From Enterobacillus tribolii (GTDB taxonomy: Bacteria > Pseudomonadota > Gammaproteobacteria > Enterobacterales > Enterobacteriaceae), in the NCBI RefSeq assembly GCF_003363015.1, contig NZ_QRAP01000005.1, forward strand, positions 330,820-394,819: DNA of 64,000 bases, in the 5' to 3' direction. Shown in pieces: positions 1 through 16,200 of the stretch. The number at the start of each line of letters is the position of its first letter. Within the stretch, counting starts at the first letter, position 1. The position numbers and the translations under genes are program-made. The notes under the pieces were generated by a model. The model was not told the DNA's origin, did not search any database, and was given only the letters and a program-made list of their open reading frames with translations.

Positions 1-174
1 GTCGTCCTGAGCGTGGAGAAAGTGCAGCAGATTGCCGAGGCCACGGTATATATCAATGGCGGAGAGCTGCACGCGGAGTCAGAGCATGAAGATATGTACG
101 CCGCCCTGGATGCGCTGGTAGACAAACTGGCGCGTCAGTTAAACAAACATAAAGACAAACTGAGACAGCACTAA
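1..174 (+). CDS. hpf: ribosome hibernation promoting factor, 3' end (partial)
   Basis: The frame ends ...[21 protein letters not shown] with stop at 172-174. This matches the Hpf/YhbH C-terminus and is followed by ptsN-rapZ-npr as in the rpoN operon. Confidence 0.8.
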
Positions 175-281
175 GCGTGCCTGCTCGCTAATTCATTAAC
201 CGCTTTGCTATCGGCCCGTTTCCCGTGAAACGGGCCGATAGATCATCAGGGGAACATAAAAGCCCGCGCCGCGGGACTTGA

Positions 282-758
282 GTGAAACACACGATGAGTA
301 ACGATTTGACAATGCCTTTAACCTCCGTGCTCAGCCCGGAGTGCACGCGCAACGCAGTACATTGCACCAGCAAAAAACGCGCCCTGGAAATCATCAGCGA
401 ACTGGCGGCGAAACAGCTGAACCTGCCGTCGCAGGTGGTGTTTGACGCCATCCTGACCAGAGAACGCATGGGAAGTACCGGGATCGGCGGCGGCATCGCC
501 ATTCCGCACGGTAAGCTGGAAGAGGACACCCTGCGCGCCATTGCCGTATTTATTCATCTGGAACAGCCCATCGACTTCGATGCCATCGACAATCAACCCG
601 TCGACCTGCTGTTCGCCCTGCTGGTGCCGGCGGATCAGTGCAAAACGCATTTGCAGACGCTGGCGATGATGGCGCAGAAACTGGCCGATAAAAGCATATG
701 CCGCCAGTTGCGCTCGGCGCAAAGCGATGAAGAGCTCTATAAACTCATTGCAGAATAA
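282..758 (+). CDS. ptsN: PTS IIA-Ntr nitrogen regulatory protein
   Basis: 158-aa ORF with a near-identical motif block to E. coli PtsN (KKRALEIISELAAKQL...RE.MGSTGIG.GIAIPHGKLEEDTLRA...DNQPVDLLFALLVPADQ.KTHL). Synteny hpf-ptsN-rapZ-npr. Confidence 0.9.
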   Translation: MKHTMSNDLTMPLTSVLSPECTRNAVHCTSKKRALEIISELAAKQLNLPSQVVFDAILTRERMGSTGIGGGIAIPHGKLEEDTLRAIAVFIHLEQPIDFDAIDNQPVDLLFALLVPADQCKTHLQTLAMMAQKLADKSICRQLRSAQSDEELYKLIAE

Positions 759-987
759 TACGTTAACTGATTATGAAAAAAGTAGCGGATGGCGTTGCCA
801 CACGTTACAGTGATCGACGATCGGTTTAAGAAATAATGGCTTTAAGAGACAGTAGGTTTAAGAACCGCCATACACGTAGCTGGTAAAATCAGCGGGCCGT
901 CACGATGACGTAAGGCCCGGCAAAACCGGCGGCGGAAACAAATTTAACGGTGGCATGGTGCCGCCCGTATACGAGGGGAAATGACTC

Positions 988-1839
988 ATGGTGCTGATGA
1001 TTGTCAGCGGCCGTTCAGGTTCGGGAAAATCCGTTGCCCTGCGAGCGCTGGAAGACATGGGCTTCTATTGTGTCGACAACCTGCCGGTGGAACTGCTGCC
1101 CGATTTAGCGCATACGCTATCCTCGCGTAATATTTCCGCCGCCGTCAGCATTGACGTTCGCAACATGCCGGAATCGCCGGAAGTGCTGGAAAAAGCGATG
1201 GACAGCCTGCCGCAGAGCTTTTCGCCGCAGTTGCTGTTTCTCGACGCCGATCGCAACACCCTGATCCGCCGCTACAGCGACACCCGCCGTCTGCATCCGC
1301 TGTCGAACAAAAACCTGTCGCTGGAAAGCGCCATCGATGAAGAGAGCGACCTGCTGGAGCCGCTGCGTTCCCGCGCCGATCTGATCATCGACACCTCCGA
1401 AATGTCGGTGCATGAGCTGGCGGAAATGCTGCGCACCCGCCTGCTGGGCAAGCGCGAGCGCGAGCTGACGATGGTGTTCGAATCGTTCGGCTTCAAGCAC
1501 GGCATTCCCATCGACGCCGACTATGTGTTCGACGTACGCTTTCTGCCTAACCCGCACTGGGACCCGAAACTGCGCCCGATGACCGGCCTGGATAAACCCG
1601 TCGCCGCGTTCCTCGATCGCCATACTGAAGTGCATAACTTCATCTACCAGACCCGCAGCTATCTGGAACAGTGGCTGCCGATGCTGGAAACCAACAACCG
1701 CAGTTACCTGACCGTCGCCATCGGCTGTACCGGTGGTAAACACCGTTCGGTTTACGTTGCCGAGCAACTGGCCGACTACTTCCGCTCACGTGGGAAAAAC
1801 GTGCAGTCACGTCACCGTACGCTGGAGAAGCGTAAGTAA
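988..1839 (+). CDS. rapZ: RNase adaptor protein RapZ (YhbJ), P-loop NTPase
   Basis: 283 aa with N-terminus [33 protein letters not shown] identical to the E. coli RapZ start. Walker A GRSGSGKS present; synteny. Confidence 0.9.
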
Positions 1840-1859
1840 ACAGGTCCGAAACACACATC

Positions 1860-2132
1860 ATGACCGTAAAACACACTGTGGAAATCAAAAACCGGCTGGG
1901 CATGCATGCCCGGCCGGCCATGAAACTGTTTGAACTGGTTCAGGGATTTGACTGTGAAGTTATGCTGCGCAACGAAAGCGGCGTAGAAGCGGAAGCAAGC
2001 AGCGTCATCGCCTTGCTGATGCTGGACTCCGCGCAGGGCGGCCATATTGAAGTTCAGGCCGACGGCCCGGACGAAGAAAAAGCGCTGGAAGCGGTCATCG
2101 GGTTATTCAATGCAGGGTTTGACGAAGACTGA
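1860..2132 (+). CDS. npr: phosphocarrier protein NPr (PtsO)
   Basis: 90-aa HPr-fold protein with the active His region ([10 protein letters not shown]), located immediately after rapZ. Confidence 0.9.
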
Positions 2133-2183
2133 CGATGTTCCCTGTGCAACAAACGGCGGCACCCGCACAGGGTGCAGGCCGTT

Positions 2184-4106
2184 TTAACTGCGGCTCAGGC
2201 AATCTTTGGCAACGCTGCGAAACTGCTCGAAATCTTTGCTGGCTAACAGGCGGCTGACCGCCCTTTCGCGCATAAACGTCACGAACAGATCGTAAATCGT
2301 CATCGCCTCTTCGTAGTCCTGCATACTGATCGCCAGCAAGAAAATGACGTAGGCGGTTTCCCCCGGCCCCCAGGCGATACCCTGCGGCGCCAGCACGGTG
2401 TACACCACGGTTTTCTTCGCCAGCAGCCCCAGCGAGTGCGGCAGCGCGATGCCTTCGCCCAGCATGGTGGAAACGATGCCTTCGCGCTCGACCAAAGACG
2501 GATGGAAATCCCCGCCGATGTATCCTTCCTGCTCCAGTTGCCGGCACAAGCGGTTGAACAGCTCGGCCTGGGTGATCGGCTTGTCGATGATGCAGAAGTG
2601 CGTCTCATCGAAAAATTTGTCCATCATATAAGGCCGGGTGCGGTCGATCAGCACCTGTTTCGCCAGTTGCTCCAGTTGGAAGCTGGTGGGGAACGGTGCA
2701 ACCAGCACCACCGGCTTATTCTTTTCCGCCACCTTCACCGTGCTGATCACAAAGTCTTCTTCAATTTGCTCCAGCTTTTCATACTCGCGCAAAGAATCAA
2801 CCTGCCGCACCATCAGTTGCGGAAACTCACGTTTAATCTTCGCTTCCAGCAAACGCACGGTAGAGATACCGGAATCACACACCAACAGCGCCTGCGGGTG
2901 GCGCTCGTAGCCAATATCGTAATGGCGTTCCAGCCCGACGCCGATATGCAGCACCAGGTAGCCGATTTCATTGTCGGTGATGGTGTAAGGAACGTCTTTT
3001 TCCCAGCTGGAAACCGCCGCCAGCGTGACGTCGTAGGCCAGCGGATAATGCTGCTTGATATGCTCCAGCAGCGGGTTCGGCATATTAATCTGGTACTTGG
3101 CGCGCGTCATCATGGTCGCGATATGGGAAAGCAGATCGCTGCGCAGTTGCTCATCCTCACGCAGATCGTAATTGTAGCGATCGTTGATAAAGCCAAGAAT
3201 ATAATCCACCAGCGCACGGTTTTCGTCCTGTCCGCCCGGTTGCAGGTTGGCGCCGTCGGTCATACGCCGCGCGGCGATCTGCACGCTGAGGTAATCCAGC
3301 TCGGCCTGCGGGATCTCGCAGCCGGTTTGCCGTTGCAGAATTTCGATCATCTGCGCGGCCGCCAGCTTCAGCGCCGGCTCCACGTCGCTGGCGCTGAACT
3401 CGCCCAGCAGATGGCCGGCGCGGATACGCTGCACAATGATGCCGCAGTAGATCATCAGATGCTGCTCGCCCTCATCGGTCATGCGAATCTGATGTTGCTG
3501 GATCACCGCATGAAGCTGTTCGCGCAGTTGGAGAAGGTCAACGCCGGGCAGCGCCAGCGCGTGCAGCTCCGGCAGGAAGTCATCCCCGCTCTGAAACTGG
3601 AACAACATGTTAGCCAGGCAGGCGCGCACCGCGTTCTCGCTGCCGAACAGACGCATACCGTGATGCGGCTTGCTCTCAATCGTCAGCCCGTACTTAGCGG
3701 CGATCTCACGCACTTCCGCCATATCGCTCTGCAACGAAGCCCGGCTGACAAACCAGCCATCGGCGATGTCATCCAGCTTGCACGCCTCGTCCTGCGCCAA
3801 AAAACGCAGCAACAAATGCACTACCCTGTCGCGTGCCGTACGCGGCAGCGTATTGCTCCGCATGTCCTGCTGCTGTTCCAGCGCGGCAAAACGCGATTCG
3901 TCGGTAATATCCAGGCGATATCCGCTGCCCCGCTGATGGACGAACTGCGCGCCGTAGTGGAGCAGAATCTCATTCAGAGCGTTAATGTCTGTGCGCACGG
4001 TACGGGTGGATACGTCAAAACGCCTGGCAAGCTCTTCCTGGGGCAAGGTTTCACCGCGGAGCGCGTCAAACAATTGGTTCAGACGTGGATATGGAAATTG
4101 AATCAT
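2184..4106 (-). CDS. PRD-domain transcriptional activator of MtlR/LicR/ManR type (HTH + two PRD + EIIB-like + EIIA-like domains)
   Basis: 640 aa. It has an N-terminal HTH (RRFDVSTRTVRTDINAL), PRD-like His-containing segments, and a C-terminal mannitol/fructose-type EIIA signature (LGEGIALPHS). It sits at the transcriptionally downstream end of the cluster at 4.5-11.7 kb. Confidence 0.75.
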   Translation of the reverse strand: MIQFPYPRLNQLFDALRGETLPQEELARRFDVSTRTVRTDINALNEILLHYGAQFVHQRGSGYRLDITDESRFAALEQQQDMRSNTLPRTARDRVVHLLLRFLAQDEACKLDDIADGWFVSRASLQSDMAEVREIAAKYGLTIESKPHHGMRLFGSENAVRACLANMLFQFQSGDDFLPELHALALPGVDLLQLREQLHAVIQQHQIRMTDEGEQHLMIYCGIIVQRIRAGHLLGEFSASDVEPALKLAAAQMIEILQRQTGCEIPQAELDYLSVQIAARRMTDGANLQPGGQDENRALVDYILGFINDRYNYDLREDEQLRSDLLSHIATMMTRAKYQINMPNPLLEHIKQHYPLAYDVTLAAVSSWEKDVPYTITDNEIGYLVLHIGVGLERHYDIGYERHPQALLVCDSGISTVRLLEAKIKREFPQLMVRQVDSLREYEKLEQIEEDFVISTVKVAEKNKPVVLVAPFPTSFQLEQLAKQVLIDRTRPYMMDKFFDETHFCIIDKPITQAELFNRLCRQLEQEGYIGGDFHPSLVEREGIVSTMLGEGIALPHSLGLLAKKTVVYTVLAPQGIAWGPGETAYVIFLLAISMQDYEEAMTIYDLFVTFMRERAVSRLLASKDFEQFRSVAKDCLSRS

Positions 4107-4542
4107 TCTCGTACCGCTGCTAACGAACTGATTAGCGCCGCAAAGCGCTGCGAATTGGCCGGAGAGGAGTCAGCAGGAAAACGTAAACGCTTCGGTCAAT
4201 TGGTGAACGAAGTCAGGCTGATTGGATACCTACCACCCTAAATAATCCGAACTGCACGGCGCAAAGAACGCGTTGAGCACCGCTGCTTTTCGAAATATAA
4301 CGGGCATATACTGTACCTTACCGCGCACAATATAAACACCGGTATATCAACCGGATGCACCCAAAAACGATTATACCGGCGACTAACAGATTCAGACAGG
4401 GAATGAATGTGATCTGTGTACCAGTTTGCGGAATCTTTCATGGAAATAAAAATCGCTTCCTGCACCCGTTCTTGTCGCGTCCCTGCTACTGCGCGCCATC
4501 TCCGCCATTGCGGACATGGCGCGCCAAACTTTCCGGAGTTTC

Positions 4543-5769
4543 TTAATGCCCGAATACCATTTGTGACGGTGCGCCCACACCCACCACGTCATCACTCATC
4601 GTCAGGCGCCCGCTCTGCGGGTCGCGGCTGAAGCGCATGATGTTGTCGCTGCGTTGGTTCAGGGCATACAAATAACGCCCGGTCGGGTCCAGCGTCAGCG
4701 TGCGCGGGTAATCACCGCCGGTCCAGACTTCCGCAACCTTGCTCAGCTTCCCTTCGTCCCCGACGGCAAACTGCATGATGCTGTTACGCAGGCGGTTGGC
4801 GACGTACAGGAAATGCCCGTCATGGCTCAGCACCAGCCCGGCGGCAAAGCTGGTTCCCTGATAGGTTTCCGGCAGCGAAGACTGGGTCGCCACCTCTTTC
4901 AGCGTACCGCTCTGCTTGTCAAAACTGTACTGCGTCAGGGTAGAGGCTTCTTCATTAATCAGATAAACCGTTTTGCCGTCCGGATGGAAGACGAAGTGAC
5001 GCGGGCCGGCACCGGCGGACGACGCCATGATGTAGGGAGGATTATTGGCCATCAGCGTGCCTTTCTCCGCATCAAAGCGCCACTGGTAAATACGGTCTAA
5101 CCCCAGATCGGTGGAAAAGACGAACTTGCCGCTGGGATCGCTGGCAATCATATGCGCATGCGGTCCGTTATGATCGCTGATGGCAAAACTGCCCGGCACT
5201 GCGGCTTCGGGTTTCGCCGCGCCCGCCGGCCCTTCGCTCTGCTTCACCGCGCTCGGCGCGCCGATTTTCCCGTCGCTTTCCACGGGGAATACCGCGATGC
5301 TGCCGCTGATATAGTTAGCGACCAGCAGGTGCTTGCCGTCCGGCGTCAGCGAAAGATACACCGGCCCTGCGCCCTGTGAGTCCGCCTGATTGAGCAGCGT
5401 AAGATCGCCGTTATCGCGGTTAACTTTGTATGCCGCCAGCGAACCGTGCTTACCGCCCTGATAGTCCGCCACTTCACTGGCTACATACAGCACGTTGCCA
5501 TCCGCCGACATCACCATCTGCGCCGCATTCGGCAAGGTACTGACCGTTTTCACTTTGCTCAGCGCGCCGCTGGCCGGGTCCACCTTCATCAGGTAAACCC
5601 CTTCCCCGTTGGGATTATAGGTTCCCACGTAAGCGAAGCGGGCCGGGGCCGGGTTTTCTGCCGTCTGCGCCAGCAATGGTTGTGCCGCCACGCCGCCGAT
5701 TAACAGCGTCATCCCCATACAAACTGCCCGTAACGGATGTAACGAAAATGCTGAATTAATAGATGTCAT
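4543..5769 (-). CDS. secreted 7-bladed beta-propeller lactonase (6-phosphogluconolactonase/3-carboxymuconate-cyclase family)
   Basis: The ORF track gives 444 aa. The likely start is ATG 5769-5767 (MTSINS...), preceded by a GGAGAAGG RBS, followed by a signal peptide (LLIGGVAAQPLLAQTAE). It has repeated blade motifs (DGKHLLVANY, DGKTVYLINE, DGHFLYVAN, TGRYLYALNQ). Confidence 0.65.
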   Translation of the reverse strand: MTSINSAFSLHPLRAVCMGMTLLIGGVAAQPLLAQTAENPAPARFAYVGTYNPNGEGVYLMKVDPASGALSKVKTVSTLPNAAQMVMSADGNVLYVASEVADYQGGKHGSLAAYKVNRDNGDLTLLNQADSQGAGPVYLSLTPDGKHLLVANYISGSIAVFPVESDGKIGAPSAVKQSEGPAGAAKPEAAVPGSFAISDHNGPHAHMIASDPSGKFVFSTDLGLDRIYQWRFDAEKGTLMANNPPYIMASSAGAGPRHFVFHPDGKTVYLINEEASTLTQYSFDKQSGTLKEVATQSSLPETYQGTSFAAGLVLSHDGHFLYVANRLRNSIMQFAVGDEGKLSKVAEVWTGGDYPRTLTLDPTGRYLYALNQRSDNIMRFSRDPQSGRLTMSDDVVGVGAPSQMVFGH

Positions 5770-5941
5770 TGCCTTCTCCGTTTGATACAACCTGGACAGA
5801 GCGCCAATGCGTGACAGACTAACGACGCATAAAACGCCCGCTGAAAACGGCAGCCGCGGACGCAGCCACCGGGACAAAACACGAAAAACCGCACCGAACA
5901 GCCGGTGCGGCAGTAGCGGGGCTAACTAACGCCCCAATCCA

Positions 5942-6682
5942 TCAACCCAACAACTTTTTCACGCTCGCCAGCAACGTTTTAACGTCTTCCGGACGCGTGT
6001 TTCCGCTCGCTTTATCAATGATGGAGCTATAGATATGCGGAATGATCTTCTTCACGCCGGCATCCAGCGCGATCTGCATAATCGCTTCGAAGTTTTCCAG
6101 ATCGATGCCGCCGGTCGGCTCCAGCCAGAAATCCTGCTCAGCGCAGGCCTGCGCCACGCGGGTGAACTCATCGCGGGTTTTCAGGCCGCCCATCGGGAAA
6201 TATTTCACCGAGCTGCCGCCCATGTCCTTGAGCATCGCGATGGCGCTTTCCACCGGCACAATGGCGTCGGCTTTCTGCGAACTCAGCGGGCCGGTGGAGA
6301 TTTTCACCATGCCCACCTGACCGGTCGGGGAGATCAGGCCGTTCACCACGCTCGCGTTCTGGCCCAGCATGCCGCGGCTGACGCCCACGCCGGTGAAGAC
6401 CTGGTTCACGTGCTGCGGCTGCAATACGCCGGAAATCTGCGACACCATCAGCGACTGATTCGGATCGCCGGCGCCGAGGCCGACGGAAAGCGCGTTGTCG
6501 ATCAGCCGTGCGTACTCTTTCATGTCCGCGATAGCGCTGCTGTTGTCGGGATAGTTCTTCGACAAGACGCCGACCAACACATAACCTTCCGCCGCTTCAT
6601 ACACATCGCGCGCGTTTTCTTTGGAACCGGCCAGCACGTTCAGGCAAACACGGTCTTTATAAAAATTTGGTGACAATTGCAT
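5942..6682 (-). CDS. KDGP/DgaF-like aldolase (DUF1341 'KDGP aldolase' family)
   Basis: The likely start is ATG 6682-6680 (MQLSPNFYKD...) with an AGGGAG RBS. The protein shows TIM-barrel-like Gly-rich segments. This protein family is recurrently found beside a SelA-like enzyme (the Salmonella dgaEF arrangement). Confidence 0.55.
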   Translation of the reverse strand: MQLSPNFYKDRVCLNVLAGSKENARDVYEAAEGYVLVGVLSKNYPDNSSAIADMKEYARLIDNALSVGLGAGDPNQSLMVSQISGVLQPQHVNQVFTGVGVSRGMLGQNASVVNGLISPTGQVGMVKISTGPLSSQKADAIVPVESAIAMLKDMGGSSVKYFPMGGLKTRDEFTRVAQACAEQDFWLEPTGGIDLENFEAIMQIALDAGVKKIIPHIYSSIIDKASGNTRPEDVKTLLASVKKLLG

Positions 6683-6720
6683 GACTTTCTCCCTCTCAAA
6701 ACTTTTCATTACAAGGCCAA

Positions 6721-7836
6721 TCAGAACAGGGCCTTGATGCATTCATAAACGGTATGCAGTTGTGCGGCGTCAACGCTGCGCACATCCACCTCAATCTTGC
6801 CTTCATTGGCCTTATAGCCGCGGAAATAGATCGCCGGGTCGCCGTTTTTCAGCCGCTCGACGATATGCTCCGTCGTGATGCCCAGCTTCTGGTGATCAAA
6901 GGTAATCTCGGTACGGGCGATGTCGCGGCCCGCGCTGTCCCACACCACCTTCGCCGATACGCCGTCGAGGGTGTTCAGGTTGTCGATGAACGCGGTCATC
7001 TTATCGACCATCTGCTGGCCGCTTTCCTTCTCCAGCGTCATATAGCTGGCGATAGCCTGAGTCAGGCCGAGAATGCCTTCTTTGCCGACCTTCATCGCCC
7101 GGCCGATGCCGTTGGCCTGCAACTTCACCCACTCAACGTATTTCTTGCGGCCAATGACCAGGCCGCTGGTGGGGCCTTCGATCGCCTTGGCGCCGCTGTA
7201 AATAACCAGATCCGCGCCCATGTTGTAATAACACTGCAGGTCCTCTTCCGCCGCGGCGTCCACGATCAGCGGCAGGTTATGGGCATGCGCCACTTCCGCC
7301 GCCTGCGCCACGTTCAGCATGCTTTTCTGCACGCAGTGGTGGGACTTCACATACAAAATCGCCGCGGTTTTCGGGGTAATCGCCGCCGCCAGCTGCGCCG
7401 GAGAACATTCGTTAGCGTAGCCCGCCTCACGCACGCAGCCGCCGCCCAGTTGCACCATGGTGCCGACCGGCGCGCCGAAGTTAACGTTATGGCCTTTCGG
7501 CACCACGATTTCGCTCGGTACGTCATGCGCATGGGCATGCAGGTTATCCAGACGGTATGCGTTGTCCTGCACGATCATCGCCGCCACCGACTGCGCGATG
7601 CCCGCGGACGCGCAAGAAACCACCACGGCGTCTTCCACGCCCAGCAGATCGGCAATATAGCGACCGGTTTTATTCACCAGATCCTTTACTTCGAAGTAAT
7701 GGTTCAGGCCGAAATTCACCGCCTCCACCACGTCTTCACGCGGCGTGGAAACCCCCAGGATGGTCATGCGGCCGGACGTGTTGATTACCGTCTTCAGGTT
7801 GTATTTTTGATATACGCTCTGGTTGTTAGAAGACAT
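6721..7836 (-). CDS. SelA-like PLP-dependent enzyme (DgaE-like sugar-acid-6-phosphate ammonia-lyase family)
   Basis: ~370 aa. A Lys-containing block YSGAKAIEGPTSG resembles the SelA PLP-lysine region. The start ATG 7836-7834 has a GGAGAG RBS, and the gene is immediately followed by the aldolase. Confidence 0.65.
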   Translation of the reverse strand: MSSNNQSVYQKYNLKTVINTSGRMTILGVSTPREDVVEAVNFGLNHYFEVKDLVNKTGRYIADLLGVEDAVVVSCASAGIAQSVAAMIVQDNAYRLDNLHAHAHDVPSEIVVPKGHNVNFGAPVGTMVQLGGGCVREAGYANECSPAQLAAAITPKTAAILYVKSHHCVQKSMLNVAQAAEVAHAHNLPLIVDAAAEEDLQCYYNMGADLVIYSGAKAIEGPTSGLVIGRKKYVEWVKLQANGIGRAMKVGKEGILGLTQAIASYMTLEKESGQQMVDKMTAFIDNLNTLDGVSAKVVWDSAGRDIARTEITFDHQKLGITTEHIVERLKNGDPAIYFRGYKANEGKIEVDVRSVDAAQLHTVYECIKALF

Positions 7837-8959
7837 GCTTTGACTCTCCATCTTGGGTAAGTACCGGCTGACCGGCGACAATCGCCGCTAACGGCAGAAT
7901 CATCGTCTGCCCGTTGCGGGTTTGTTGTTCTGAATCGGCAAACACCTGCGGCTGCGCTTCCACGGCGAAAAGGGTGAAGTCGGCGTCGCAGCCCACCTCC
8001 AGCCTGCCTTTGTTTTCGAGACGCAGCGCCTGCGCGGCGTTGACCGTGACGCAATCAATGATTTGCGCCAGACTCAGTCCGGCGATAAAGAACTTGGACA
8101 TCACGTACGCCAGGCTGTACACCGGCCCTTTGATGCGGTTCTTGCAGTAAATGTCGGAGCTGATGGTATTGGGGTAAATGCCCTGACGAATGGCGATTTC
8201 CGCCACGTCGAAGCTGAAACTGGCGCTGCCGTGACCGACATCCAGCAACACGCCGCGATCCAGCGCGCGCTTCACCGCGGCGCGCAGTTCGCCTTCCGGC
8301 GTCAGGATGCGGTTCGGTTTGCCGTTGTAGCAGTGGGTGATGATGTCGCCGCGGGTCAGCAGGTCGGCAATATCGTCCAGATTCGGCGGATTGTTGCCTA
8401 CATGCACCATCAGCGGCAACCCGCCGTTCTGCGCCTGGATTTCTTTGGCGCGCACCAGCGGTCTGATGCCGTTGTCCTGCACCACGCTGCCGCTCATGCG
8501 CGCCTTGATGCCGATGACAAAGCCTTTGTGATCGCCGATCGCCTTGTGCGCCAGCGCATCATCAATGTCGTTCATATCGCCCAGCTCGTTCTGACGCAGC
8601 AGGCCGATACGGGAAATGTTCAGAAATGCATAAACGTTGGTCTTCGCCGCGCGGGTCAGACGATAAAACTCGTCAATGTCGTCCGCGCCGGTGCTGCCGG
8701 CGTCAACCACCGTCGTCACGCCGCTGCTGACGCCGACCAAATCAGGTTCGTCGTTGTAAATCGGCGAGGACGGGTAGCAGTGGGTATGGGAGTCGATCCA
8801 GCCGGCGCTCAGGTAATAACGGCCGTTCAGGTCAAGGATTCGGGTTGCGGTGAGGTCGCTGTCAAGCTGGCCAATCAGGGCAATCTTTCCGTCTTTAACC
8901 GCAATATCAATCAGGCTGCCGTCAACGCGCTTACCCTGCTTGATAATTAAATCGTACAT
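7826..8959 (-). CDS. metal-dependent amidohydrolase (cluster-specific EF_0837/AHA_3915-like family)
   Basis: 377 aa with an N-terminal metal-binding motif (GWIDSHTHCY) and a later HVG/DVGHG block typical of the amidohydrolase superfamily. Confidence 0.7.
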   Translation of the reverse strand: MYDLIIKQGKRVDGSLIDIAVKDGKIALIGQLDSDLTATRILDLNGRYYLSAGWIDSHTHCYPSSPIYNDEPDLVGVSSGVTTVVDAGSTGADDIDEFYRLTRAAKTNVYAFLNISRIGLLRQNELGDMNDIDDALAHKAIGDHKGFVIGIKARMSGSVVQDNGIRPLVRAKEIQAQNGGLPLMVHVGNNPPNLDDIADLLTRGDIITHCYNGKPNRILTPEGELRAAVKRALDRGVLLDVGHGSASFSFDVAEIAIRQGIYPNTISSDIYCKNRIKGPVYSLAYVMSKFFIAGLSLAQIIDCVTVNAAQALRLENKGRLEVGCDADFTLFAVEAQPQVFADSEQQTRNGQTMILPLAAIVAGQPVLTQDGESKHVF

Positions 8960-9010
8960 AGTTTGCCTTCATCAGTTGGTTCCCCCGCACAAGGCGGGGG
9001 AAGGGGGGAA

Positions 9011-9661
9011 TTACGAGATAGCTACCGGGAAGATGGAACCGAAAATCATCGCACCCAGGATGGCGCCGCCGGTGATCGGCTTGTTCCAGATGTAGAACAG
9101 CAGCGCGCCGATCAGAGAACCGATACCGATAGGAATCGACGCCGTCATTGCCGACAGGATAATCAACGGCCCCAGGAAACGGCCGGAAGCATTACCTGCG
9201 CCCATCATGACGTCCGCGCCATAGGTCGAGTTGCTCTGGTTGATGGTGAACTTACGCGCCAGAATGATCAGGTAGCCGATCAACATCCCGATCACCATGC
9301 CGGTAATCAGCGAGGCGATAAAGTTCTCCACCGGGTAGATGATGCCCGCGCCCAGCAGCAGCGCCGGAACACCCAGGCCAACGCCGGTCTGTACCGCGCC
9401 GCCGATGTCCAGAATCCCCACCAGGGAGCCTTCGATGATACGGGCGAACAGGAAGCTGGCGCCGAATGCGGCAACCGCGCCGTAAACGCCGGTATCAATC
9501 CCCGCACGCAGCATGGACACGAAGGCCACTTCGTTGAACGCGCCGATACCGTACAGGTAGTACATGTGCGTCCCGGCAAATACCCCGGAGGACAGCAGTC
9601 CGACGAAAATCGGGAAAGACCAGTCGGCATACCAAAAACTATTCTTTAATTTCTCATCCAT
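9011..9661 (-). CDS. polytopic membrane protein, DUF4310-type (EF_0833/AHA_3914-like)
   Basis: 216 aa, very hydrophobic and Gly/Ala-rich with ~6 predicted TM segments. GGAGAC RBS. Length and position in the conserved cluster are as expected. Confidence 0.55.
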   Translation of the reverse strand: MDEKLKNSFWYADWSFPIFVGLLSSGVFAGTHMYYLYGIGAFNEVAFVSMLRAGIDTGVYGAVAAFGASFLFARIIEGSLVGILDIGGAVQTGVGLGVPALLLGAGIIYPVENFIASLITGMVIGMLIGYLIILARKFTINQSNSTYGADVMMGAGNASGRFLGPLIILSAMTASIPIGIGSLIGALLFYIWNKPITGGAILGAMIFGSIFPVAIS

Positions 9662-9679
9662 TGTCTCGTCTCCGCCCGA

Positions 9680-10456
9680 TTATTTGCCGCTCAGGGTGTT
9701 ATGGATATATTCCAGCCAACCCGGAACACCCAGTTGGAAGGATTCCAGCACCTTCATATCGAACCCGCGGAAGAAGCCGCTGAGGACAAACAGCAGAACA
9801 ATTACCGCCATCATGATCTTGGTGACTTTGTTCCAGCCGCTTTCTTCTACGCCCTTACCGATCAGGATGCCCAGAACCAGACCCGGTACGGCGTTGCCCA
9901 TAATCAGCTGCGCCAGGCCGCCGAAGATGGTGGCCCAGAAGCCGGAGCGACGGCCCGCGTCAATCGCGGCCAGCCAGAAGATAACCGGCATCACGGTATT
10001 CACCAGCAGGTTAGCGGCAGGCACCAGCACCTTAACGGCGGTGATCTGCAGCGCTTCCGGCACCGCGGAGGCGGTAGAGTTCAGGAAGGTCACCACGAGA
10101 ATGCCGATGATGCCGCACGCGATCGCCATCTTTTTGGGATCGTGCAGGGTTTCCGCGACGTTGCGGTTTTTGATCATCAGCGCCGCGGCGCCCCAGTTAG
10201 GAATGATGCGGTGGTCAACGTCCTGAGTGAACGCACCGGCCGCAACGGAGGAAGCCCAGGCGTTAAAGAAGAAGCCCAGACCGAAAGAGAAGTGAGACGC
10301 AGGATCGCCCTCGCACGAATTCAGCTCGCCCAGTGTACGAAACGCACCCATTCCCTGTACCGTCGGCGCGTGGAACATTCGGGCCGCACCGGCGCCGACG
10401 CCCACTCCGACCAAGCCGCCGATGATAATCGACTTAATCAGAATAATTAAAAACAT
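9680..10456 (-). CDS. polytopic membrane protein, DUF4311-type (EF_0832/AHA_3913-like)
   Basis: 258 aa hydrophobic protein with N-terminal GGLVGVGVGAGAA, adjacent to the DUF4310-type gene. Confidence 0.55.
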   Translation of the reverse strand: MFLIILIKSIIIGGLVGVGVGAGAARMFHAPTVQGMGAFRTLGELNSCEGDPASHFSFGLGFFFNAWASSVAAGAFTQDVDHRIIPNWGAAALMIKNRNVAETLHDPKKMAIACGIIGILVVTFLNSTASAVPEALQITAVKVLVPAANLLVNTVMPVIFWLAAIDAGRRSGFWATIFGGLAQLIMGNAVPGLVLGILIGKGVEESGWNKVTKIMMAVIVLLFVLSGFFRGFDMKVLESFQLGVPGWLEYIHNTLSGK

Positions 10457-10520
10457 CAGTATATTCCTTAATAGTATGACGCCTGCCAGGTAATTCCGTC
10501 AGGCGGTTGCTGTGGTAGCC

Positions 10521-10817
10521 TTATACCGATTTGAAATCTATTTTATCCGTATCAATAGAGGTTACACTCACCGTTATTTCCAGCGTCACGGAATATTCCT
10601 TTTTTTTACGCGGCAAGAAAAAAAACAAAAACTTTTCTGTCGTTATTTTCTCCTCAGCACGAATAACACGGACATCTTCCGGCTCGATCCGCAATAAAAC
10701 CTTGTCGGTTTCCCTGAGAATCTGACCTTGTACGCTACTTAACGCCGCGGCAAACGCTTTTTGTTTAGTATTGCTTTTGCCGCTGACGGTTACGGTGGTT
10801 GTAATACTCTCTTTCAT
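10521..10817 (-). CDS. small soluble protein, DUF4312-type (EF_0831/AHA_3912-like)
   Basis: 98-aa ORF directly upstream of the DUF4311-type gene and downstream of the SFCGS gene. The order matches the conserved cluster. Confidence 0.45.
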   Translation of the reverse strand: MKESITTTVTVSGKSNTKQKAFAAALSSVQGQILRETDKVLLRIEPEDVRVIRAEEKITTEKFLFFFLPRKKKEYSVTLEITVSVTSIDTDKIDFKSV

Positions 10818-10819
10818 TA

Positions 10820-11182
10820 TCAGTTACCGTGTTTTTTGATATAGGCTTCCACCAGCTTCTGACCTAATTCCTCTTTATCCATAAAGCCGAATCCTAATAC
10901 GTTGCAGCCTTCGTTAATGGCGGTAACGCCTTCTTCGATGGAGCGCATACCGTAGCGCGCTTTATAACCGTACTTGGTTTGCGCGGTAATAGCACCGGCG
11001 CCGCCGCTGCCGCAGAAAGAGATGCCCAGGTCAGCGTTTTCCTGCTTCATCACGTCGCCCAGCTTCATGTCCGCCGCCACGCCGGGGATAACAACAGCCG
11101 TGCCGCCAGCCGCTTCCACGCCCTGGCCCACTTTCTGGCCTTTCCCCAGACGATCGCCGATCACTACTTTAATTGCCGTCAT
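10820..11182 (-). CDS. glycine-rich SFCGS-family protein (EF_0830/AHA_3911-like)
   Basis: 120 aa containing the literal motif ISFCGSGGAGAITAQ plus Gly-rich segments. This family is diagnostic of the EF_0829-0839-type cluster. Confidence 0.75.
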   Translation of the reverse strand: MTAIKVVIGDRLGKGQKVGQGVEAAGGTAVVIPGVAADMKLGDVMKQENADLGISFCGSGGAGAITAQTKYGYKARYGMRSIEEGVTAINEGCNVLGFGFMDKEELGQKLVEAYIKKHGN

Positions 11183-11185
11183 AAT

Positions 11186-11533
11186 TTATTCTCCCGTTAC
11201 GCTGCTTAATTCATTTTCTTTCGCCACTTCGAAGTGGACGGATAATAAATGTGCTTCTTCATACGCCAGGCCGTCAAACCAACTAACAACCTGCTCTGCT
11301 AATTTCAGTGACATCGGTGAGATTTCATCAAACAAGGAAATATCGACCTCAGGTAAAGGTTCTCCGGTATGCGAACGTAATACCATGGCTTTTACATGTG
11401 AAAAAAGCATCTGCTTCTGCACTTCATTCGGATAAATTCCTTTACCGCTTAATAATGTGCTAACTTTTTCCAATACGCCGTTCGTTTCTTTTTCCAGAGT
11501 CACTTCATCCACTGAGCGTTGTTGTTCTGCCAC
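11186..11533 (-). CDS. small PRD-domain protein (EF_0829/AHA_3910-like), first gene of the operon
   Basis: The probable GTG start at 11533 is preceded by GAGGGGAGAG. ~115 aa with a His-containing C-terminal segment (HLLSVHFEVAKE). The longer ATG-initiated ORF (to 11674) lacks an RBS. Confidence 0.4.
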   Translation of the reverse strand: MAEQQRSVDEVTLEKETNGVLEKVSTLLSGKGIYPNEVQKQMLFSHVKAMVLRSHTGEPLPEVDISLFDEISPMSLKLAEQVVSWFDGLAYEEAHLLSVHFEVAKENELSSVTGE

Positions 11534-11960
11534 GCCGTCTCTCCCCTCTATTCTGTTCAACGGTATTCTTCTCTCTGTTGATGTTGTTACCCTACAGCGG
11601 ATAAATAAATAAGAGGAGCGGATCTTTTTCCATTTCAAACTGGAAATCCCTCCCCGGAAATGGGCCTGCTTCAAATTTTGCTTTTCACAAAATTTTATTC
11701 ATAGATTTATTGTATGATTTTCTTGGAAAAATCATTTTTGTGATGGGCTTTGCCGGTCACATTTGATACTATCGAACGACAAAATGCGGGCTGCCGAAAT
11801 CGTGATGCAGCTCACTTTTAAAATGCGGCGTGGCTCTTTATTATCGCTACAGACGCAAAAGCGAATGCTGAACCCTCACACCTCTGGCTGTGGGGGTTTT
11901 CTTTGTTATGACCGAATTCAACGAGAGGGGAGCTCTCAACCAAGACTCATGGAGAACAGT

Positions 11961-12371
11961 ATGCCCAGACCTGCAATTATATTGAACGAACTCGACGCCG
12001 AACGCCTGGACGCGTTACTGGAGCAGGCCGCCTACGCTAACTCACCGGTAGCTGAAGCGTTGAACACCGAACTGGATCGCGCGGAAATGCGCAGCCCGGA
12101 AGATATTCCTGCCGACGTCGTCACGATGAACAGCCGGGTGAAATTCCGCGATCTGGAATCGGGTGAAGAGCACGTCCGCACGCTGGTCTACCCCGTTAAT
12201 CTGAAAGACAGCAACGATCAGATTTCCGTGATGGCGCCGATTGGCGCTGCCCTGCTGGGGCTGCGGGTCGGTAACAATATCATCTGGGATCTGCCCAACG
12301 GCAACCAGACCCACATCGAAGTGCTGGAGCTGCAATACCAGCCTGAAGCGGCCGGCGAGTACCACCGCTAA
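11961..12371 (+). CDS. rnk: regulator of nucleoside diphosphate kinase (GreA/GreB-family)
   Basis: The ATG at 11961 with a GGAG RBS gives a 136-aa protein that aligns along its whole length with E. coli Rnk ([17 protein letters not shown]...[13 protein letters not shown]...[11 protein letters not shown]). Confidence 0.85.
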
Positions 12372-12544
12372 TCAGAAAGGGCCGCCCACGCCAGGGTAGC
12401 CCGCGCTTATTAACGGGAAAATATCCTAATTTTCCCGTTATCGGTTAGGAAGATTCTCAAACTCAGATAGGCACCTCGCCATTCATTGGCGTTATGATAG
12501 CCTCTTCGCCCATATAGGGACGTAAGAGTACGAGATGCAGACTT

Positions 12545-13177
12545 ATGGAAAAAACCACGCCGATCGAATGCCTTATCGTTGACGATCACCCCGCCATCTG
12601 CTTCGCCCTGAAAGCTATTCTGGAAAAGACGCCCGGTTTTACTGCCTCTTCGGCGGCGGACGGCGTTCGTGCGATGGCGTTGATTAAAGAAAATCCCCCG
12701 TCGCTGGTCATTCTCGACATCATGCTGGCCCGTCTGGACGGCCTGGAAGTGCTGACCCGCATCAAACAGTTCGACCCGGCGATTAAGGTGCTGATTCTCA
12801 CCGGGCTGTCTGCGGAGCAATACGCCATGCGCACCCTGCGCGGCGGCGCGGAAGGCTTTATCAACAAGAATATTGATCTGCATGATATTCCGCTGATTTG
12901 CCGGCAGATTTTGGACGGCTACTGTTATTACCCGGATTTCTGCCTGAAGCAGCGGATTGCCGAACTCACGACGCCGGAGGCGGAGAACCCCCTCAGCACG
13001 CTGTCGGACAGAGAAATCTCCGTGCTGCGCCATTTACTGGACGGTAAATCGATCAAAGAAATCGCCGATCTGCTGCTATTGAGTAATAAAACCATCAGCA
13101 CCTATAAAGCCAGGCTGTTTGAAAAAACCGGCACGCACGATCTGGAGCGCCTGAAGCAGCTGATGGAACAGCAATAA
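12545..13177 (+). CDS. LuxR/FixJ-family response regulator (EvgA/BvgA-like)
   Basis: 210 aa with a REC domain (IVDDHP...LDIML) and a C-terminal LuxR HTH (LSDREISVLRHLLDGKSIKEIADLLLLSNKTISTYK). Directly upstream of a BvgS/EvgS-type hybrid kinase. Confidence 0.8.
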   Translation: MEKTTPIECLIVDDHPAICFALKAILEKTPGFTASSAADGVRAMALIKENPPSLVILDIMLARLDGLEVLTRIKQFDPAIKVLILTGLSAEQYAMRTLRGGAEGFINKNIDLHDIPLICRQILDGYCYYPDFCLKQRIAELTTPEAENPLSTLSDREISVLRHLLDGKSIKEIADLLLLSNKTISTYKARLFEKTGTHDLERLKQLMEQQ

Positions 13178-13205
13178 CCAATAAAAAAGAATTAATGGAA
13201 AAACC

Positions 13206-16200
13206 ATGAGCCGCCGCTTTTCGTTTCCGCTGTTTTCGCTTCTCCTGCTGACGTTCCTGTTTTGCGGTACGCCCCACACCCGCGCCGAAAACACCCCCGC
13301 GTCTTATCAGGAACTCATCCTGGTCGGTCACAGCGCCATGATGCTGGCCGACATAGATCTCAGCGACGACGAGTGGCGCTGGCTGCGCAAGAAGCGCGTC
13401 TTGCGGCTGGGCACCTGGGCGCCGAACTCTCCGCCCTACGACATTACCTCCGGCAGCCATGACTACAGCGGCATCAGCGCGGACTATGCCCAGCTTATCG
13501 GCCGCAACCTGAATATTCAGACCAAGGTTTACTACTATCCGGATTACAATTCGGCGCTGAACGCCATCCGCACCCGCCAGATTGATTATCTGGTGCTGGC
13601 CTCCGAGCGTGAACGCAACGAAGGGCTGATCCTGAGTACGCCCTACCTGCCTACCGTGCCCGCGATGGTGATGAACATTGATTCCACCAATACTCGGCGC
13701 GACCTGCGCATCGCCATCGATCCGCTGTACGCCGACAACGCAGAACTGCTGAAGCGCTATCCGGAGGCGACCCGGACGAAAGTAACGTCCACCCGCCACG
13801 CCCTGGAGTCGCTCTCGTTCCGCCAGCTCGATTTATTCGTCGGCGACATCGCCGGCGCCCAGTACATCGTCAATCAGGCCAACCTGCGCAACCTCAGCAT
13901 CCGGCCGATTCCCGACGTTAACATCAGAGGGTTTTCTTTCGCCGCCCTGCCGGAAAATCAAACCCTGATTACCATCTTCAACAAGCTGCTGGCGGCGATT
14001 CCCGGCAACATCCGGGCCGACATCCAGCGCCGCTGGGACGGCGGTGTTCCGCTGTCGATGGGGAACCGCAACCTGTTGTTCACCACGCTGGAGCGGCGCT
14101 GGCTGGAAAAACACCCGGCGCTGAAGGTCGCGATCGTCGACGATCTGGCCCCCATCAGCTTCTTCGACAGCAAGGGCACCCTGCGCGGCATTGCAGAAGA
14201 CATTATCACCGCCCTCGCCACCCGCACGGCCGTCCAGTTCATCCCCGAACGCTACGCCTCTTTGCACCAGGCGCAGGAAGCCATCGCCTCGGGCGAAGCG
14301 GATATCCTGATCAACTCGCTTTACAACAGCGCCAGCAAAAATGGCTTGCTGACCACCCGCACTTTTCTCTTTAACTCCTGGGCCGAAGTACGCCGCAAGA
14401 ATGAGCTTAAGCACAAAGGCCCGCCCCGGCTTGCCGTCCTGACAGGCGGAGAACCGGACGCCACACTGGCGGAGCTGTATCCGGGCAGCCCGGTAACGCG
14501 CCAGGAAACGCTGCGCGCCGCGCTGGAACAGCTGAGACTGGGATTGGCGGATATCGCCATTATGCCGCTGATTAACGCGGATTTTCTGGTGTCTCACTAC
14601 TATTCAGACACCCTGCGGATTAACGACAGCCTGGACGTCGAACCGGCCCGCTTCGTGCTGGCGGTCGCCGCCAACAACTACCCGCTGGCGACCATCCTCG
14701 ACAAAACGTTGCTGAACATCCCGCCGGAGGATCTGCATACCATCACCCATAACTGGTACACCAACGCCAACCTTCCCGGAAATATCGGCCCGCGCCCGGA
14801 AAAACGCGTTACCCCCTGGTGGCTGCCCGCCGCCGCCGGCGTACTGAGCCTGTTCTGCCTGCTGCTGGCCTGGTACGCTTTTCGCCTGAAACGGTACAAC
14901 CGCCAGATCGCCCGCAGCATTCTCGACACACTGCCGCTGCCCGCCTATGCCACGGATTTCAAAGGCCGTATCCGCTACGTCAACGATCGCTTCCTCAACG
15001 CGCTGTCGCTGCCCCGCGAAGAAACGCTGGGCAAACACCTCTCGACGCTGCTGCCGGTGCAATTGGACGACGCGCATACCCGCATTCTGCCCTCTTCCCG
15101 GCTGATCGAAACCGAGCGGGCCGACAAGAAAATCTCATTGCAGTTCTGGAATGAACTGATGCTGACGCCGGACGGCCAGGCCACCGGCTACATCGGCGGC
15201 TGGATCGACATTACCGCTCAGCAAAACCTGATCAGCGAACTGAAGAAGGCCAAAAGCGCGGCGGATAAAGCCAACCGCGCCAAGAGTACGTTCCTGGCGA
15301 CCATGAGCCATGAAATCCGCACGCCGATGAGCGCCATTATCGGCATGCTGGAACTGGTGCTGCGCCGGAAGTCGGCGAATCAGCCGGACTGGGACGCCAT
15401 CCACACCGCCTATGAGTCGGCGAACTCGCTGTTGATCCTGATCGGCGACATTCTGGACGTCTCGCGCATCGAATCCGACCGCCTGGTGCTGCACCCGGAG
15501 CGTGCCAATATCCGCCAGTTGATCGAGTCCGTGGCGGCGATGTTTGAAGGGCTGGCGCGCCAGCGGGGATTGCTGTTTCAGTTGGAGATCGACAGCGAAA
15601 TCAGCGGCGACGTGCTGATCGACCCCGTGCGCTTCAAGCAGATTGTTTCCAACCTGCTGAGCAACGCCATCAAATTCACCCAGTCCGGGCGCATCCTGCT
15701 GCGGGCCGCGCCCGAACGCGAAGACTCCACCAGCCTCTACCTGGTGCTGAGCGTGCAGGACAGCGGCTGCGGTATCGATCAGGACACGCAGTCCCGCCTG
15801 TTCCGCCCGTTCCAGCAGGGCGACATGCCGGCAACGCGCCAGGGCGCGGGGCTGGGGCTGTATATCTGCCGCACCCTGGCGCAGATGATGGAGGGCGACA
15901 TCACCCTGACCAGCCAGCCGGGCATCGGCACGGACGTCAATGTCCGGCTGCGCGTTCCCCGCCTTACGCACCTGGATCTGCTGCCGGTGTCTGCGCCGGC
16001 GCAAGCGCCGGAAAATCCGTCGCGCCTGATCCTGATCGTGGAAGATCATCCGGCCGGACGCATGCTGCTGACCCACCAGCTTCAGTACCTCGGCCACCGC
16101 GTCCTGTGCGCCAGCGATGGCGCACAGGCGCTGGCATTACTGGAACAACAGACGCCGGATCTGATCATCACCGACTGCAACATGCCGCGCATGAGCGGCT

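Follow-up and report, generated by a model that had tools for sequence, protein, structure and literature searches.

The phosphotransferase system (PTS) has been studied for sixty years, and its permeases form a small, closed set of families. Among described routes for amino-sugar acids, the closest to the locus described here are the DgaABCDEF system of Salmonella, for D-glucosaminate, and the Ong pathway of Pseudoalteromonas prydzensis, in which N-acetyl-D-glucosaminate (GlcNAc1A) is deacetylated, deaminated to 2-keto-3-deoxygluconate (KDG) and phosphorylated last, by KdgK (PMC9537276, PMC12017989). GlcNAc1A is a natural product of the action of lytic polysaccharide monooxygenases (LPMOs) on chitin, and its catabolism by the Ong route, whose enzymes are unrelated to those reported below, is proven (PMC9537276, PMC12017989). 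Here I describe a cluster of ten co-directional genes in a 64-kb stretch of Enterobacillus tribolii (hereafter the window), located on the minus strand at positions 2184–11674 and flanked by npr (1860–2132) and rnk (11967–12371). I propose, with a probability of about one half, that it serves the catabolism of an N-acylated 2-amino-2-deoxy-D-aldonic acid taken up by a PTS-type mechanism, the best candidate substrate being GlcNAc1A or its 1,5-lactone. As a group of conserved hypothetical proteins the cluster has been known ever since its TIGRFAM models were built, and the observation itself is not new. No functional study of it was found in full-text literature searches with the DUF, TIGRFAM and Pfam names and with Salmonella and Enterococcus locus tags, and searches using PDB codes and TIGRFAM or Pfam accessions returned nothing relevant, in agreement with the initial annotation of this stretch, which knew of no assigned substrate.

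The genes were identified from a listing of open reading frames (ORFs) and from hidden Markov model (HMM) scans. Eight of the ten exceed the curated cut-offs of TIGR03577–TIGR03583 and TIGR01437, with each of the seven families TIGR03577–TIGR03583, those of the conserved EF_0829-0839/AHA_3910-3917 cluster, matched at 1.27–2.0 times its trusted cut-off. They are adjacent and co-directional, in the order prd-SFCGS-DUF4312-DUF4311-DUF4310-amidohydrolase-lyase-aldolase, and the remaining two encode an MtlR-type PRD activator and a periplasmic lactonase. For comparison I used a set of 92 loci. The gene order is identical throughout the best 80 loci, all of them from Enterobacterales. The initial annotation had named all of these families on the minus strand except one, and scores far over the curated cut-offs bear these assignments out, including those of DUF4310, DUF4311 and DUF4312, of the small PRD protein (by TIGR03582) and of the large activator (by its Pfam domains); the tenth gene, the lactonase between aldolase and regulator, had been missed.

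I am fairly confident that the catabolic half of the cluster follows a modified Dga pathway, to which a deacetylation has been added. The lyase, a pyridoxal phosphate (PLP)-dependent enzyme (TIGR01437, 596.5 bits, cut-off 385.3), is 42% identical to Salmonella DGL (7LC0), in which Arg226 lies at the alpha-carboxylate and Arg301, Arg332 and Arg346 at the phosphate (PMC9529869). It retains these four arginines, as well as His162, His163 and the PLP lysine motif SGAKA. As these catalytic, carboxylate-binding and phosphate-binding residues are conserved, its substrate is very probably a 2-amino-2-deoxy-aldonate 6-phosphate. The aldolase (TIGR03581, 398.9 bits, cut-off 222.4; PF07071, 361 bits) passes the equivalog model of DagF, the 2-keto-3-deoxy-6-phosphogluconate (KDPG) aldolase (NF047796, 394 bits, cut-off 300), and its relatives in the PDB are 3M0Z, 3NZR and 3LM7 (E about 1e-124). 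The dehydrative deamination and aldol cleavage previously suggested for this DgaE/DgaF-like pair are therefore supported.

The amidohydrolase (TIGR03583, 548.4 bits, cut-off 432.2) belongs to the EF_0837/cog3964 group, its PDB matches being 8WZY (E 2e-158), 2ICS, which is EF0837 itself (E 4e-106), and 2OGJ (E 3e-59). The characterised members of this group, Atu3266 and Oant2987, are said to cleave acetyl groups off (R)-configured alpha-substituted acids, as Ornelas and colleagues reportedly found in 2013. Given this membership and the specificity of the downstream lyase, its natural substrate would be an N-acyl 2-amino-aldonate-6-phosphate; the N-acylated substrate hinted at in the initial annotation agrees with this assignment to a deacetylase family. 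I also considered the amidohydrolase as a homologue of OngB, which was rejected: OngB is D-aminoacylase-like, of subtype V (Cys/His/His), and the D-aminoacylases that it resembles, 1M7J and 3GIP, are absent from the PDB matches of the cluster amidohydrolase.

With genes of both the DgaE and DgaF families present, the cluster could have been an ordinary copy of the Salmonella dgaABCDEF system for D-glucosaminate. This is very improbable, and is refuted by gene content: the ten proteins include neither mannose-family EIIA, EIIB, EIIC or EIID nor a sigma-54 activator, a deacetylase and five unrelated genes are added, and the lyase does not reach the cut-off of the DgaE equivalog NF047797 (372 bits, cut-off 600). 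Moreover, Salmonella possesses this cluster (STM4445 region, cybC to nrdG) besides dga, which is located elsewhere.

The initial annotation did not discuss the role of the four unknown genes, although no others in the cluster could account for the uptake and phosphorylation on which the downstream enzymes depend; together with the small PRD gene, SFCGS, DUF4312, DUF4311 and DUF4310 make up a five-gene module. The cluster described here contains neither a kinase gene nor a canonical EII gene. In twelve annotated contexts, spanning five phyla, the core cluster contains no kinase, with the one exception of a KDG-kinase-like gene in Enterococcus faecalis. Since lyase and aldolase need a phosphorylated substrate, this favours phosphotransferase-type uptake. 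The two PRD proteins provide a link to the PTS, as PRD domains are, to my knowledge, phosphorylated only by PTS proteins. In addition, a gene for an HPr-EI fusion adjoins the cluster in two alphaproteobacterial replicons, one from Microvirga and the other a Bartonella plasmid. Alphaproteobacteria normally lack sugar PTSs, and the presence of this fusion beside the cluster in such lineages also favours PTS-type uptake, as does the MtlR pattern of conserved sites in the regulator; in MtlR, the PRD2, EIIB-like and EIIA-like sites are phosphorylated by the cognate EII proteins. Overall, I regard the odds that uptake is PTS-coupled as evenly balanced.

Two further contexts touch on this question. 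In a locus from a metagenome-assembled genome (MAG; L089, 8974–12250), the five-gene module is found with a gene for a metallo-beta-lactamase-fold hydrolase, and without amidohydrolase, lyase and aldolase. Occurrence apart from the Dga-type enzymes is the behaviour expected of a transport module, in the single example of this kind that was seen. The hydrolase was considered as a UlaG-like phospho-lactonase, but gave no PDB match and only weak Pfam matches. A locus labelled Martelella alba (L095, GCA_005217455.1) was considered as a third PTS-less host with its own EI, and rejected because of its enterobacterial synteny (yjgA-pmbA-cybC, the cluster, then npr-rapZ-ptsN-hpf-rpoN) and its decaying cluster, with a truncated DUF4311, no DUF4310 and a single ORF that joins lactonase and regulator. 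The contig seems to represent a Sodalis-like symbiont, or contamination, rather than an alphaproteobacterium.

In the system that I propose, a secreted lactonase would open the lactone in the periplasm, and the DUF4311/DUF4310 pair would import the acid and deliver it phosphorylated at O6. The phosphoryl group would pass from phosphoenolpyruvate through EI and HPr to a histidine of the small PRD protein, and from there to Cys57 of SFCGS, with DUF4312 as a non-phosphorylated accessory subunit. The acyl group would then be removed by the EF_0837-type amidohydrolase, the DgaE-family lyase would convert the 2-amino-aldonate-6-phosphate to KDPG and ammonia, and the DgaF-type aldolase would yield pyruvate and glyceraldehyde-3-phosphate. 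The MtlR-type activator may read the phosphorylation state of this relay via His328 and His387 of PRD2, Cys410 and His557, and would turn on the prd-to-aldolase operon from a conserved palindrome. Within this scheme, I infer the identity of the substrate, the coupling of uptake to phosphorylation and the proteins that carry the phosphoryl group. A stronger version, which I hold only tentatively and with the odds against it, is that the five genes encode an unrecognised family of PTS permeases for N-acyl amino-aldonates, with a PRD domain in place of EIIA, the RpiB-derived SFCGS in place of EIIB, and a new-fold, heteromeric membrane pair as the translocator.

SFCGS (TIGR03577, 226.5 bits, cut-off 141.1; Pfam Gly_rich_SFCGS, 212) possesses an invariant cysteine, Cys57, in the near-invariant loop S-F-C-G-S-G-G-A-G-A at a strand-to-helix junction. 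It is 100% identical to an Enterobacillus tribolii protein. In fold and sequence it is closest to RpiB/LacAB, not to EIIB; Cys57 is in register with the catalytic Cys of LacB and RpiB, the next Ser/Thr is also kept, and the Pfam LacAB_rpiB model scores 17.1 bits, under its gathering score of 24.7. RpiB His99 aligns with SFCGS Asn90, and the alignment stops with the end of SFCGS, at residue 125 of the 149 in RpiB; besides the Cys, the active site of Escherichia coli RpiB includes His99/Asn100 and a C-terminal Arg/His phosphate site. SFCGS and DUF4312 were also considered as divergent EIIB or EIIA of the Lac, Gat or Asc type, and rejected, as far as homology is concerned, because hhalign probabilities did not exceed 7% (for UlaC, across 22 residues) and were below 1% in all other cases. 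In the small PRD protein (TIGR03582, 138.9 bits, cut-off 69.4), His46 is about invariant and His100 mostly conserved, and both align with the PRD2 residues H328 and H387 of the regulator. Its gene keeps its place immediately before SFCGS in clusters that lack the large activator: Olsenella and a Mycoplasmatales MAG have a gene for a GntR regulator beside the cluster, and next to that of Fusobacterium no large PRD activator was seen.

DUF4311 (TIGR03580, 511.9 bits, cut-off 301.1) and DUF4310 (TIGR03579, 401.8 bits, cut-off 215.5; PF14187, 356 bits) are polytopic, and many of their Arg, His, Glu, Asp and Asn residues are invariant; in DUF4310, hydrophobic segments are found together with the conserved H32, E44, R74, E77, D85, R136, K137 and R161, and DUF4311 has a group of conserved Arg, His and Glu residues (R26, H29, R40, E44, H55, H82 and R83). 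They are the sole membrane proteins of the cluster, which has no ABC, TRAP or MFS components, and this leaves no other candidates for uptake. The pair has no relatives in sequence or structure. A search of 1.84 billion representative proteins with a HMMER profile of DUF4311 gave 125 matches, all of them DUF4311 members and mostly fragments. Comparison by hhalign of the pair with the E. coli proteins SrlA, SrlE, UlaA and ChbC was negative, and no homology of the membrane component to a known EIIC or EIID family was found. Two more specific ideas were rejected by the same method, namely that DUF4310, DUF4311, SFCGS and DUF4312 are divergent glucitol-family PTS parts (at most 0.6% probability against SrlA, SrlE and SrlB), and that DUF4310 and DUF4311 are mutual paralogues (1%). 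ORFs that fuse DUF4311 to DUF4310 (426–440 amino acids; P0198, P0208 and P0212) occur in metagenomes, one being annotated in an assembly of the fungus Astraeus odoratus; they are probably frameshifts or contamination, and fit the idea of one complex. DUF4312 (TIGR03578, 136.2 bits, cut-off 89.7; PF14189, 118 bits) has no match in the PDB, and its invariant residues are A, P and E-x-F-L-x2-F-x2-R. The lack of a conserved His, Cys or Asp makes it an unlikely phosphoryl carrier.

Several of these results weigh against PTS-type uptake. All tests for EIIA, EIIB and EIIC homology failed, SFCGS is RpiB-like, and the only EIIA-fold protein is the EIIA_2 domain of the regulator, which Pfam misses in Firmicute regulators. 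I know of no precedent for a PRD domain as a phosphocarrier to a transporter, and the alphaproteobacterial HPr-EI fusion could be needed only for activating the PRD regulator. The failed homology tests and the nature of SFCGS keep alive a different explanation, in which the same pathway is served by non-PTS uptake: DUF4311/DUF4310 would be a new-fold, ion-coupled secondary carrier, which agrees with the absence of homology to any EII family; SFCGS would be an isomerase or C2 epimerase derived from RpiB/LacB and active on the phosphorylated sugar acid; a kinase would be encoded elsewhere; and the PRD proteins and HPr/EI would be regulatory only, in catabolite control. I consider this unlikely. 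SFCGS is indeed nearest to RpiB/LacAB and keeps the catalytic Cys and the following Ser/Thr, but it has Asn90 in place of RpiB His99 and stops about 30 residues short of the part of RpiB that carries the phosphate-binding Arg/His residues, and a route that begins with an aldonic acid offers no obvious substrate to an aldose-ketose isomerase. The KDG-kinase-like gene of E. faecalis would suit a separate kinase; however, no other context examined has a linked one, and the conserved phosphate-binding Arg cluster of the lyase requires the 6-phosphate before the KDG stage. Finally, the need of PRD activators for HPr-dependent phosphorylation could alone explain the co-transferred HPr-EI gene, but the small PRD protein persists beside SFCGS even with a GntR-type regulator.

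The regulator contains HTH_11, Mga, two PRD and EIIA_2 domains (Pfam, NCBIfam), and an EIIB(Gat)-like domain recognised from its LLVCDSG motif alone, with no HMM match. Among 92 orthologues, H328 and H387 of PRD2 are conserved in 100%, C410 (in LLVCDSG) in 96% and H557 (in ALPHS, within EIIA_2) in 96%. I take the PRD2 histidine, EIIB-like cysteine and EIIA-like histidine to correspond to H342, C419 and H599 of MtlR. PRD1 has no conserved His; Cys221, conserved in 93%, is at the position of the phosphorylatable His of PRD2 and of the small PRD protein.

A palindrome, TTTCCAGTTTGAAATGGAAA, is located at 11627–11646, 32 nt upstream of a -10-like TAGGGT (11589–11594). Serratia, Yersinia, Klebsiella, Chimaeribacter, Edaphovirga, Sodalis, Mixta, Shimwellia and one Pantoea (L021) share both the palindrome and this spacing ahead of the small PRD gene, and a second Pantoea (L009) keeps the outer half-sites only. 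Sequence and position, relative to a -10-like TAnnnT, are retained in nearly all of the Enterobacterales loci that were inspected. The palindrome is unique in the window; of 100 shuffles, 4 reached one match. Within 3 mismatches it was not found upstream of lactonase or regulator. It is likely the site of the activator. CRP-like sites are present upstream of the palindrome in several genera; that in the window is a half-site only, with better matches in Klebsiella and Shimwellia, and in RegPrecise, as PMC11000858 cites it, STM4441-2, the orthologues in Salmonella, are assigned to Crp. Upstream of the conserved operator is a second palindrome, ATGATTTTTCCAAGAAAATCAT (11716–11737, minus strand), which is nearly perfect and, among the upstream regions compared, is found in this genome only. 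A strong intrinsic terminator behind the aldolase gene implies the end of the prd-to-aldolase operon, making lactonase and regulator separate transcription units. A Rfam scan of positions 1–14000, at E up to 1, gave a chance microRNA match only, and no riboswitch or antiterminator RNA.

The lactonase (PF10282, 346 bits) has as its best solved relative PpgL, a periplasmic gluconolactonase (6IGB, E 5e-47). Its start codon is preceded by GGAG at -10, and its Sec signal peptide is predicted to be cleaved between MTSINSAFSLHPLRAVCMGMTLLIGGVAAQPLLA and QT. Lactonase ORFs are present in 32 of the 92 loci, this window included, and a full N-terminal Sec-type signal peptide, from an ATG, in 29 of these (the window and 28 others). 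In the remaining three, of which two are from Chimaeribacter and one is from Mixta, no more than the last part of the hydrophobic core and the AxA cleavage motif is seen, probably owing to a non-ATG start codon. An aldonolactone is the first product of sugar C1 oxidation by a dehydrogenase, an oxidase or an LPMO, and a secreted PpgL-like lactonase suggests that, in the genera that possess it, the nutrient is met as an aldonolactone in the periplasm. The gap between lactonase and regulator is 436 bp here, compared with 26–146 bp in 31 other loci; it shows no similarity to the other loci compared and no Rfam match, and contains a GC-rich hairpin (4491–4524) right after the lactonase stop.

N-acetyl-D-glucosaminate, or its lactone, fits the deacetylase, the lyase, the aldolase and the lactonase, and many carriers of the cluster are chitinolytic. 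This substrate is nevertheless a guess. The lyase lies under the DgaE equivalog cut-off and its exact substrate may thus differ, and the lactonase occurs in only about a third of the loci. The carriers of the cluster also include Anaerotruncus, Olsenella and Fusobacterium, strict gut anaerobes for which chitin oxidised by LPMOs is an improbable source. Expression of STM4441-2 and STM4446 in Salmonella was seen only when it was co-cultured with a permissive community from the chicken caecum (PMC11000858, Table 2). Together with the occurrence in gut anaerobes, this makes other origins, or a different epimer, quite possible. The E. faecalis cluster (L002, 10548–17263) contains extra genes, for a Lac/Cel-family EIIC, a 99-amino-acid protein without family, a MupG-family 6-phospho-glycosidase and the KDG-kinase-like protein, and a Gfo/Idh/MocA oxidoreductase is encoded just upstream; this suggests the use of a disaccharide ending in an amino-sugar acid, for example chitobionic acid.

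The system as described may therefore act on another substrate, such as N-acetyl-D-mannosaminate, N-acetyl-D-galactosaminate, an N-acylated glycolipid aminogluconate, a product formed when host or microbes oxidise mucin amino sugars, or a related D-amino acid, and not on oxidised chitin. I judge this rather unlikely. The lyase is a paralogue and not a DgaE equivalog; it eliminates the amino group at C2 and the hydroxyl at C3, which erases their configuration and leads several epimers to the same KDPG, but the aldolase scores as an equivalog of DagF, which is of the KDPG (gluco) type. The frequency of the cluster in gut and host-associated anaerobes, the restricted expression in Salmonella (PMC11000858) and the absence of a lactonase from most loci all point away from chitin. 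On the other hand, no other candidate is directly supported. The carriers include classic chitinolytic, LPMO-bearing genera, namely Serratia, with the lactonase version, and Aeromonas, Vibrionaceae and Chromobacterium, with the core.

The break in synteny with E. coli after npr, noted in the initial annotation, is genuine, and ptsN, rapZ and npr were confirmed. A DNA match to the cluster was found in none of 5,426 complete E. coli genomes, indicating that it is absent there. To describe the cluster as inserted is however an overstatement: the arrangement rnk, cluster, npr-rapZ recurs in Serratia, Chimaeribacter, Edaphovirga and Sodalis, which argues for an inherited position rather than an insertion specific to this genome. 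In Klebsiella and Salmonella the cluster sits between cybC and relBE-nrdG. In a pattern scan with one genome per species, relatives of DUF4311 were found in at least 524 species, and the copy described here is an ordinary one among these 524 or more. The eight-gene core extends over several phyla and is also present in Aeromonas, Aliivibrio, Chromobacterium, Enterococcus, Anaerotruncus, Olsenella, Fusobacterium, a Mycoplasmatales MAG and two alphaproteobacterial replicons. Between Enterobacillus and Enterococcus, identity is 65–77% for SFCGS, DUF4311, DUF4310 and the aldolase, and 38–53% for the PRD protein, DUF4312, the amidohydrolase and the lyase, which points to horizontal spread of the whole unit. 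In one divergent cluster (L097, 9246–14861), DUF4312 has moved to the end, behind the aldolase; all eight genes are retained, and the set is therefore conserved even where the order is not.

The features of the locus are collected in Table 1. Start codons were reassigned using ribosome-binding sites and the lengths of orthologues, since several of the longest ORFs overshoot the likely starts (lactonase, ATG 5769; aldolase, ATG 6682; DgaE, ATG 7836); the small PRD gene likely starts around GTG 11533, not at 11674. The end of the amidohydrolase gene overlaps the DgaE start by 11 nt, and the stop codon of the small PRD gene is 3 nt ahead of the SFCGS start. GC content is 44–48% across positions 10501–12000 (DUF4312, SFCGS, the small PRD gene and the promoter region), compared with 54–61% elsewhere in the cluster. 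Past rnk (12545–16703) are genes for a FimZ/EvgA-like response regulator and an EvgS-like hybrid sensor kinase (1165 amino acids), with no visible relation to the cluster.

Table 1. Features of the Enterobacillus tribolii cluster, in window coordinates (aa, amino acids).
Feature	Position	Strand	Family or remark
Small PRD protein (about 115 aa)	11186..11533	-	TIGR03582; likely start about GTG 11533; candidate His phosphocarrier or sensor
Glycine-rich SFCGS protein (120 aa)	10820..11182	-	TIGR03577; candidate Cys phosphocarrier or RpiB-like enzyme
DUF4312 small soluble protein (98 aa)	10521..10817	-	PF14189, TIGR03578
DUF4311 polytopic membrane protein (258 aa), putative permease subunit	9680..10456	-	TIGR03580
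DUF4310 polytopic membrane protein (216 aa), putative permease subunit	9011..9661	-	PF14187, TIGR03579
EF_0837-type amidohydrolase/deacetylase (377 aa)	7826..8959	-	TIGR03583
DgaE-family PLP-dependent ammonia-lyase (371 aa)	6721..7836	-	TIGR01437
KDGP (2-keto-3-deoxy-6-phosphogluconate) aldolase, DgaF/EF_0839 type (246 aa)	5942..6682	-	TIGR03581, NF047796
Intrinsic terminator	5888..5911	-	10-bp stem, 7 GC pairs, then T-run
Periplasmic 7-bladed beta-propeller lactonase (408 aa)	4543..5769	-	PF10282, Sec signal peptide
436-bp spacer, lactonase stop to regulator start	4107..4542	.	No similarity elsewhere
MtlR/LicR-type transcriptional activator (640 aa)	2184..4106	-	HTH_11, Mga, PRD1, PRD2, EIIB-Gat-like, EIIA_2
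Promoter region with palindrome and -10-like TAGGGT	11589..11646	-	Conservation upstream of small PRD gene

If correct, a PTS permease family that combines a PRD domain with an RpiB-like protein and two membrane proteins without relatives would be a real addition, and PRD domains would have to be seen as carriers, not as sensors alone. Should the substrate be N-acetyl-glucosaminate, the cluster would provide a missing route for the use of oxidised amino sugars by enteric and Gram-positive bacteria, and a nutrient niche relevant to colonisation; such sugars could come from LPMO, oxidase or dehydrogenase action on chitin or N-acetylglucosamine, or from oxidative chemistry in the gut. The idea is directly testable, as the hosts of the cluster include the genetically tractable Salmonella, Klebsiella pneumoniae, Serratia, Yersinia, Aeromonas, Vibrionaceae and E. 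faecalis.

With Salmonella DgaABCDEF the cluster shares the combination of a PLP-dependent 2-amino-aldonate-6-phosphate ammonia-lyase and a PF07071 KDPG aldolase, with key residues kept, and the need for a substrate that arrives phosphorylated. In contrast, it lacks EIIA/B/C/D-Man and the sigma-54 regulator DgaR, and adds a five-gene uptake module, a PRD activator and a deacetylase, the latter implying an N-acyl substrate; its lyase, at 42% identity, is also below the equivalog level. As in the Ong pathway, an N-acetyl amino-aldonate would be deacetylated and deaminated to a 2-keto-3-deoxy acid that joins the Entner-Doudoroff route, but the proteins are unrelated, the lyase expects a phosphate, no KdgK is encoded in the cluster, and transporter and regulator differ. 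The amidohydrolase is of the same subgroup as Atu3266 and Oant2987, the characterised members being from a different genomic context, and the (R) configuration of the substrates of that group is the C2 configuration of D-glucosaminate. The lactonase is, like PpgL of Pseudomonas aeruginosa, a secreted 7-bladed propeller; the similarity is moderate, and its substrate is probably an N-acyl-amino-aldonolactone.

The regulator has the HTH-Mga-PRD1-PRD2-EIIB(Gat)-EIIA(Mtl/Fru) order of the MtlR/LicR/ManR activators, such as MtlR of Bacillus subtilis. It differs in that its PRD1 has a conserved Cys for His and that its cognate EII partners are not canonical EIIA/EIIB, and an activator of the MtlR type is unusual in Enterobacterales. 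SFCGS departs from RpiB/LacAB in its length (120 amino acids, compared with 149–172), in the missing C-terminal phosphate-binding segment, and in being always encoded between a PRD protein and membrane proteins. Lastly, although the cluster proteins failed every EIIA/EIIB/EIIC homology test, they would resemble the canonical PTS permeases (Glc/Fru/Lac, Gut, Gat, Asc and Man) in the proposed phosphorylating uptake, in regulation by PRD domains, and in the linkage to HPr/EI in hosts that otherwise have no PTS.

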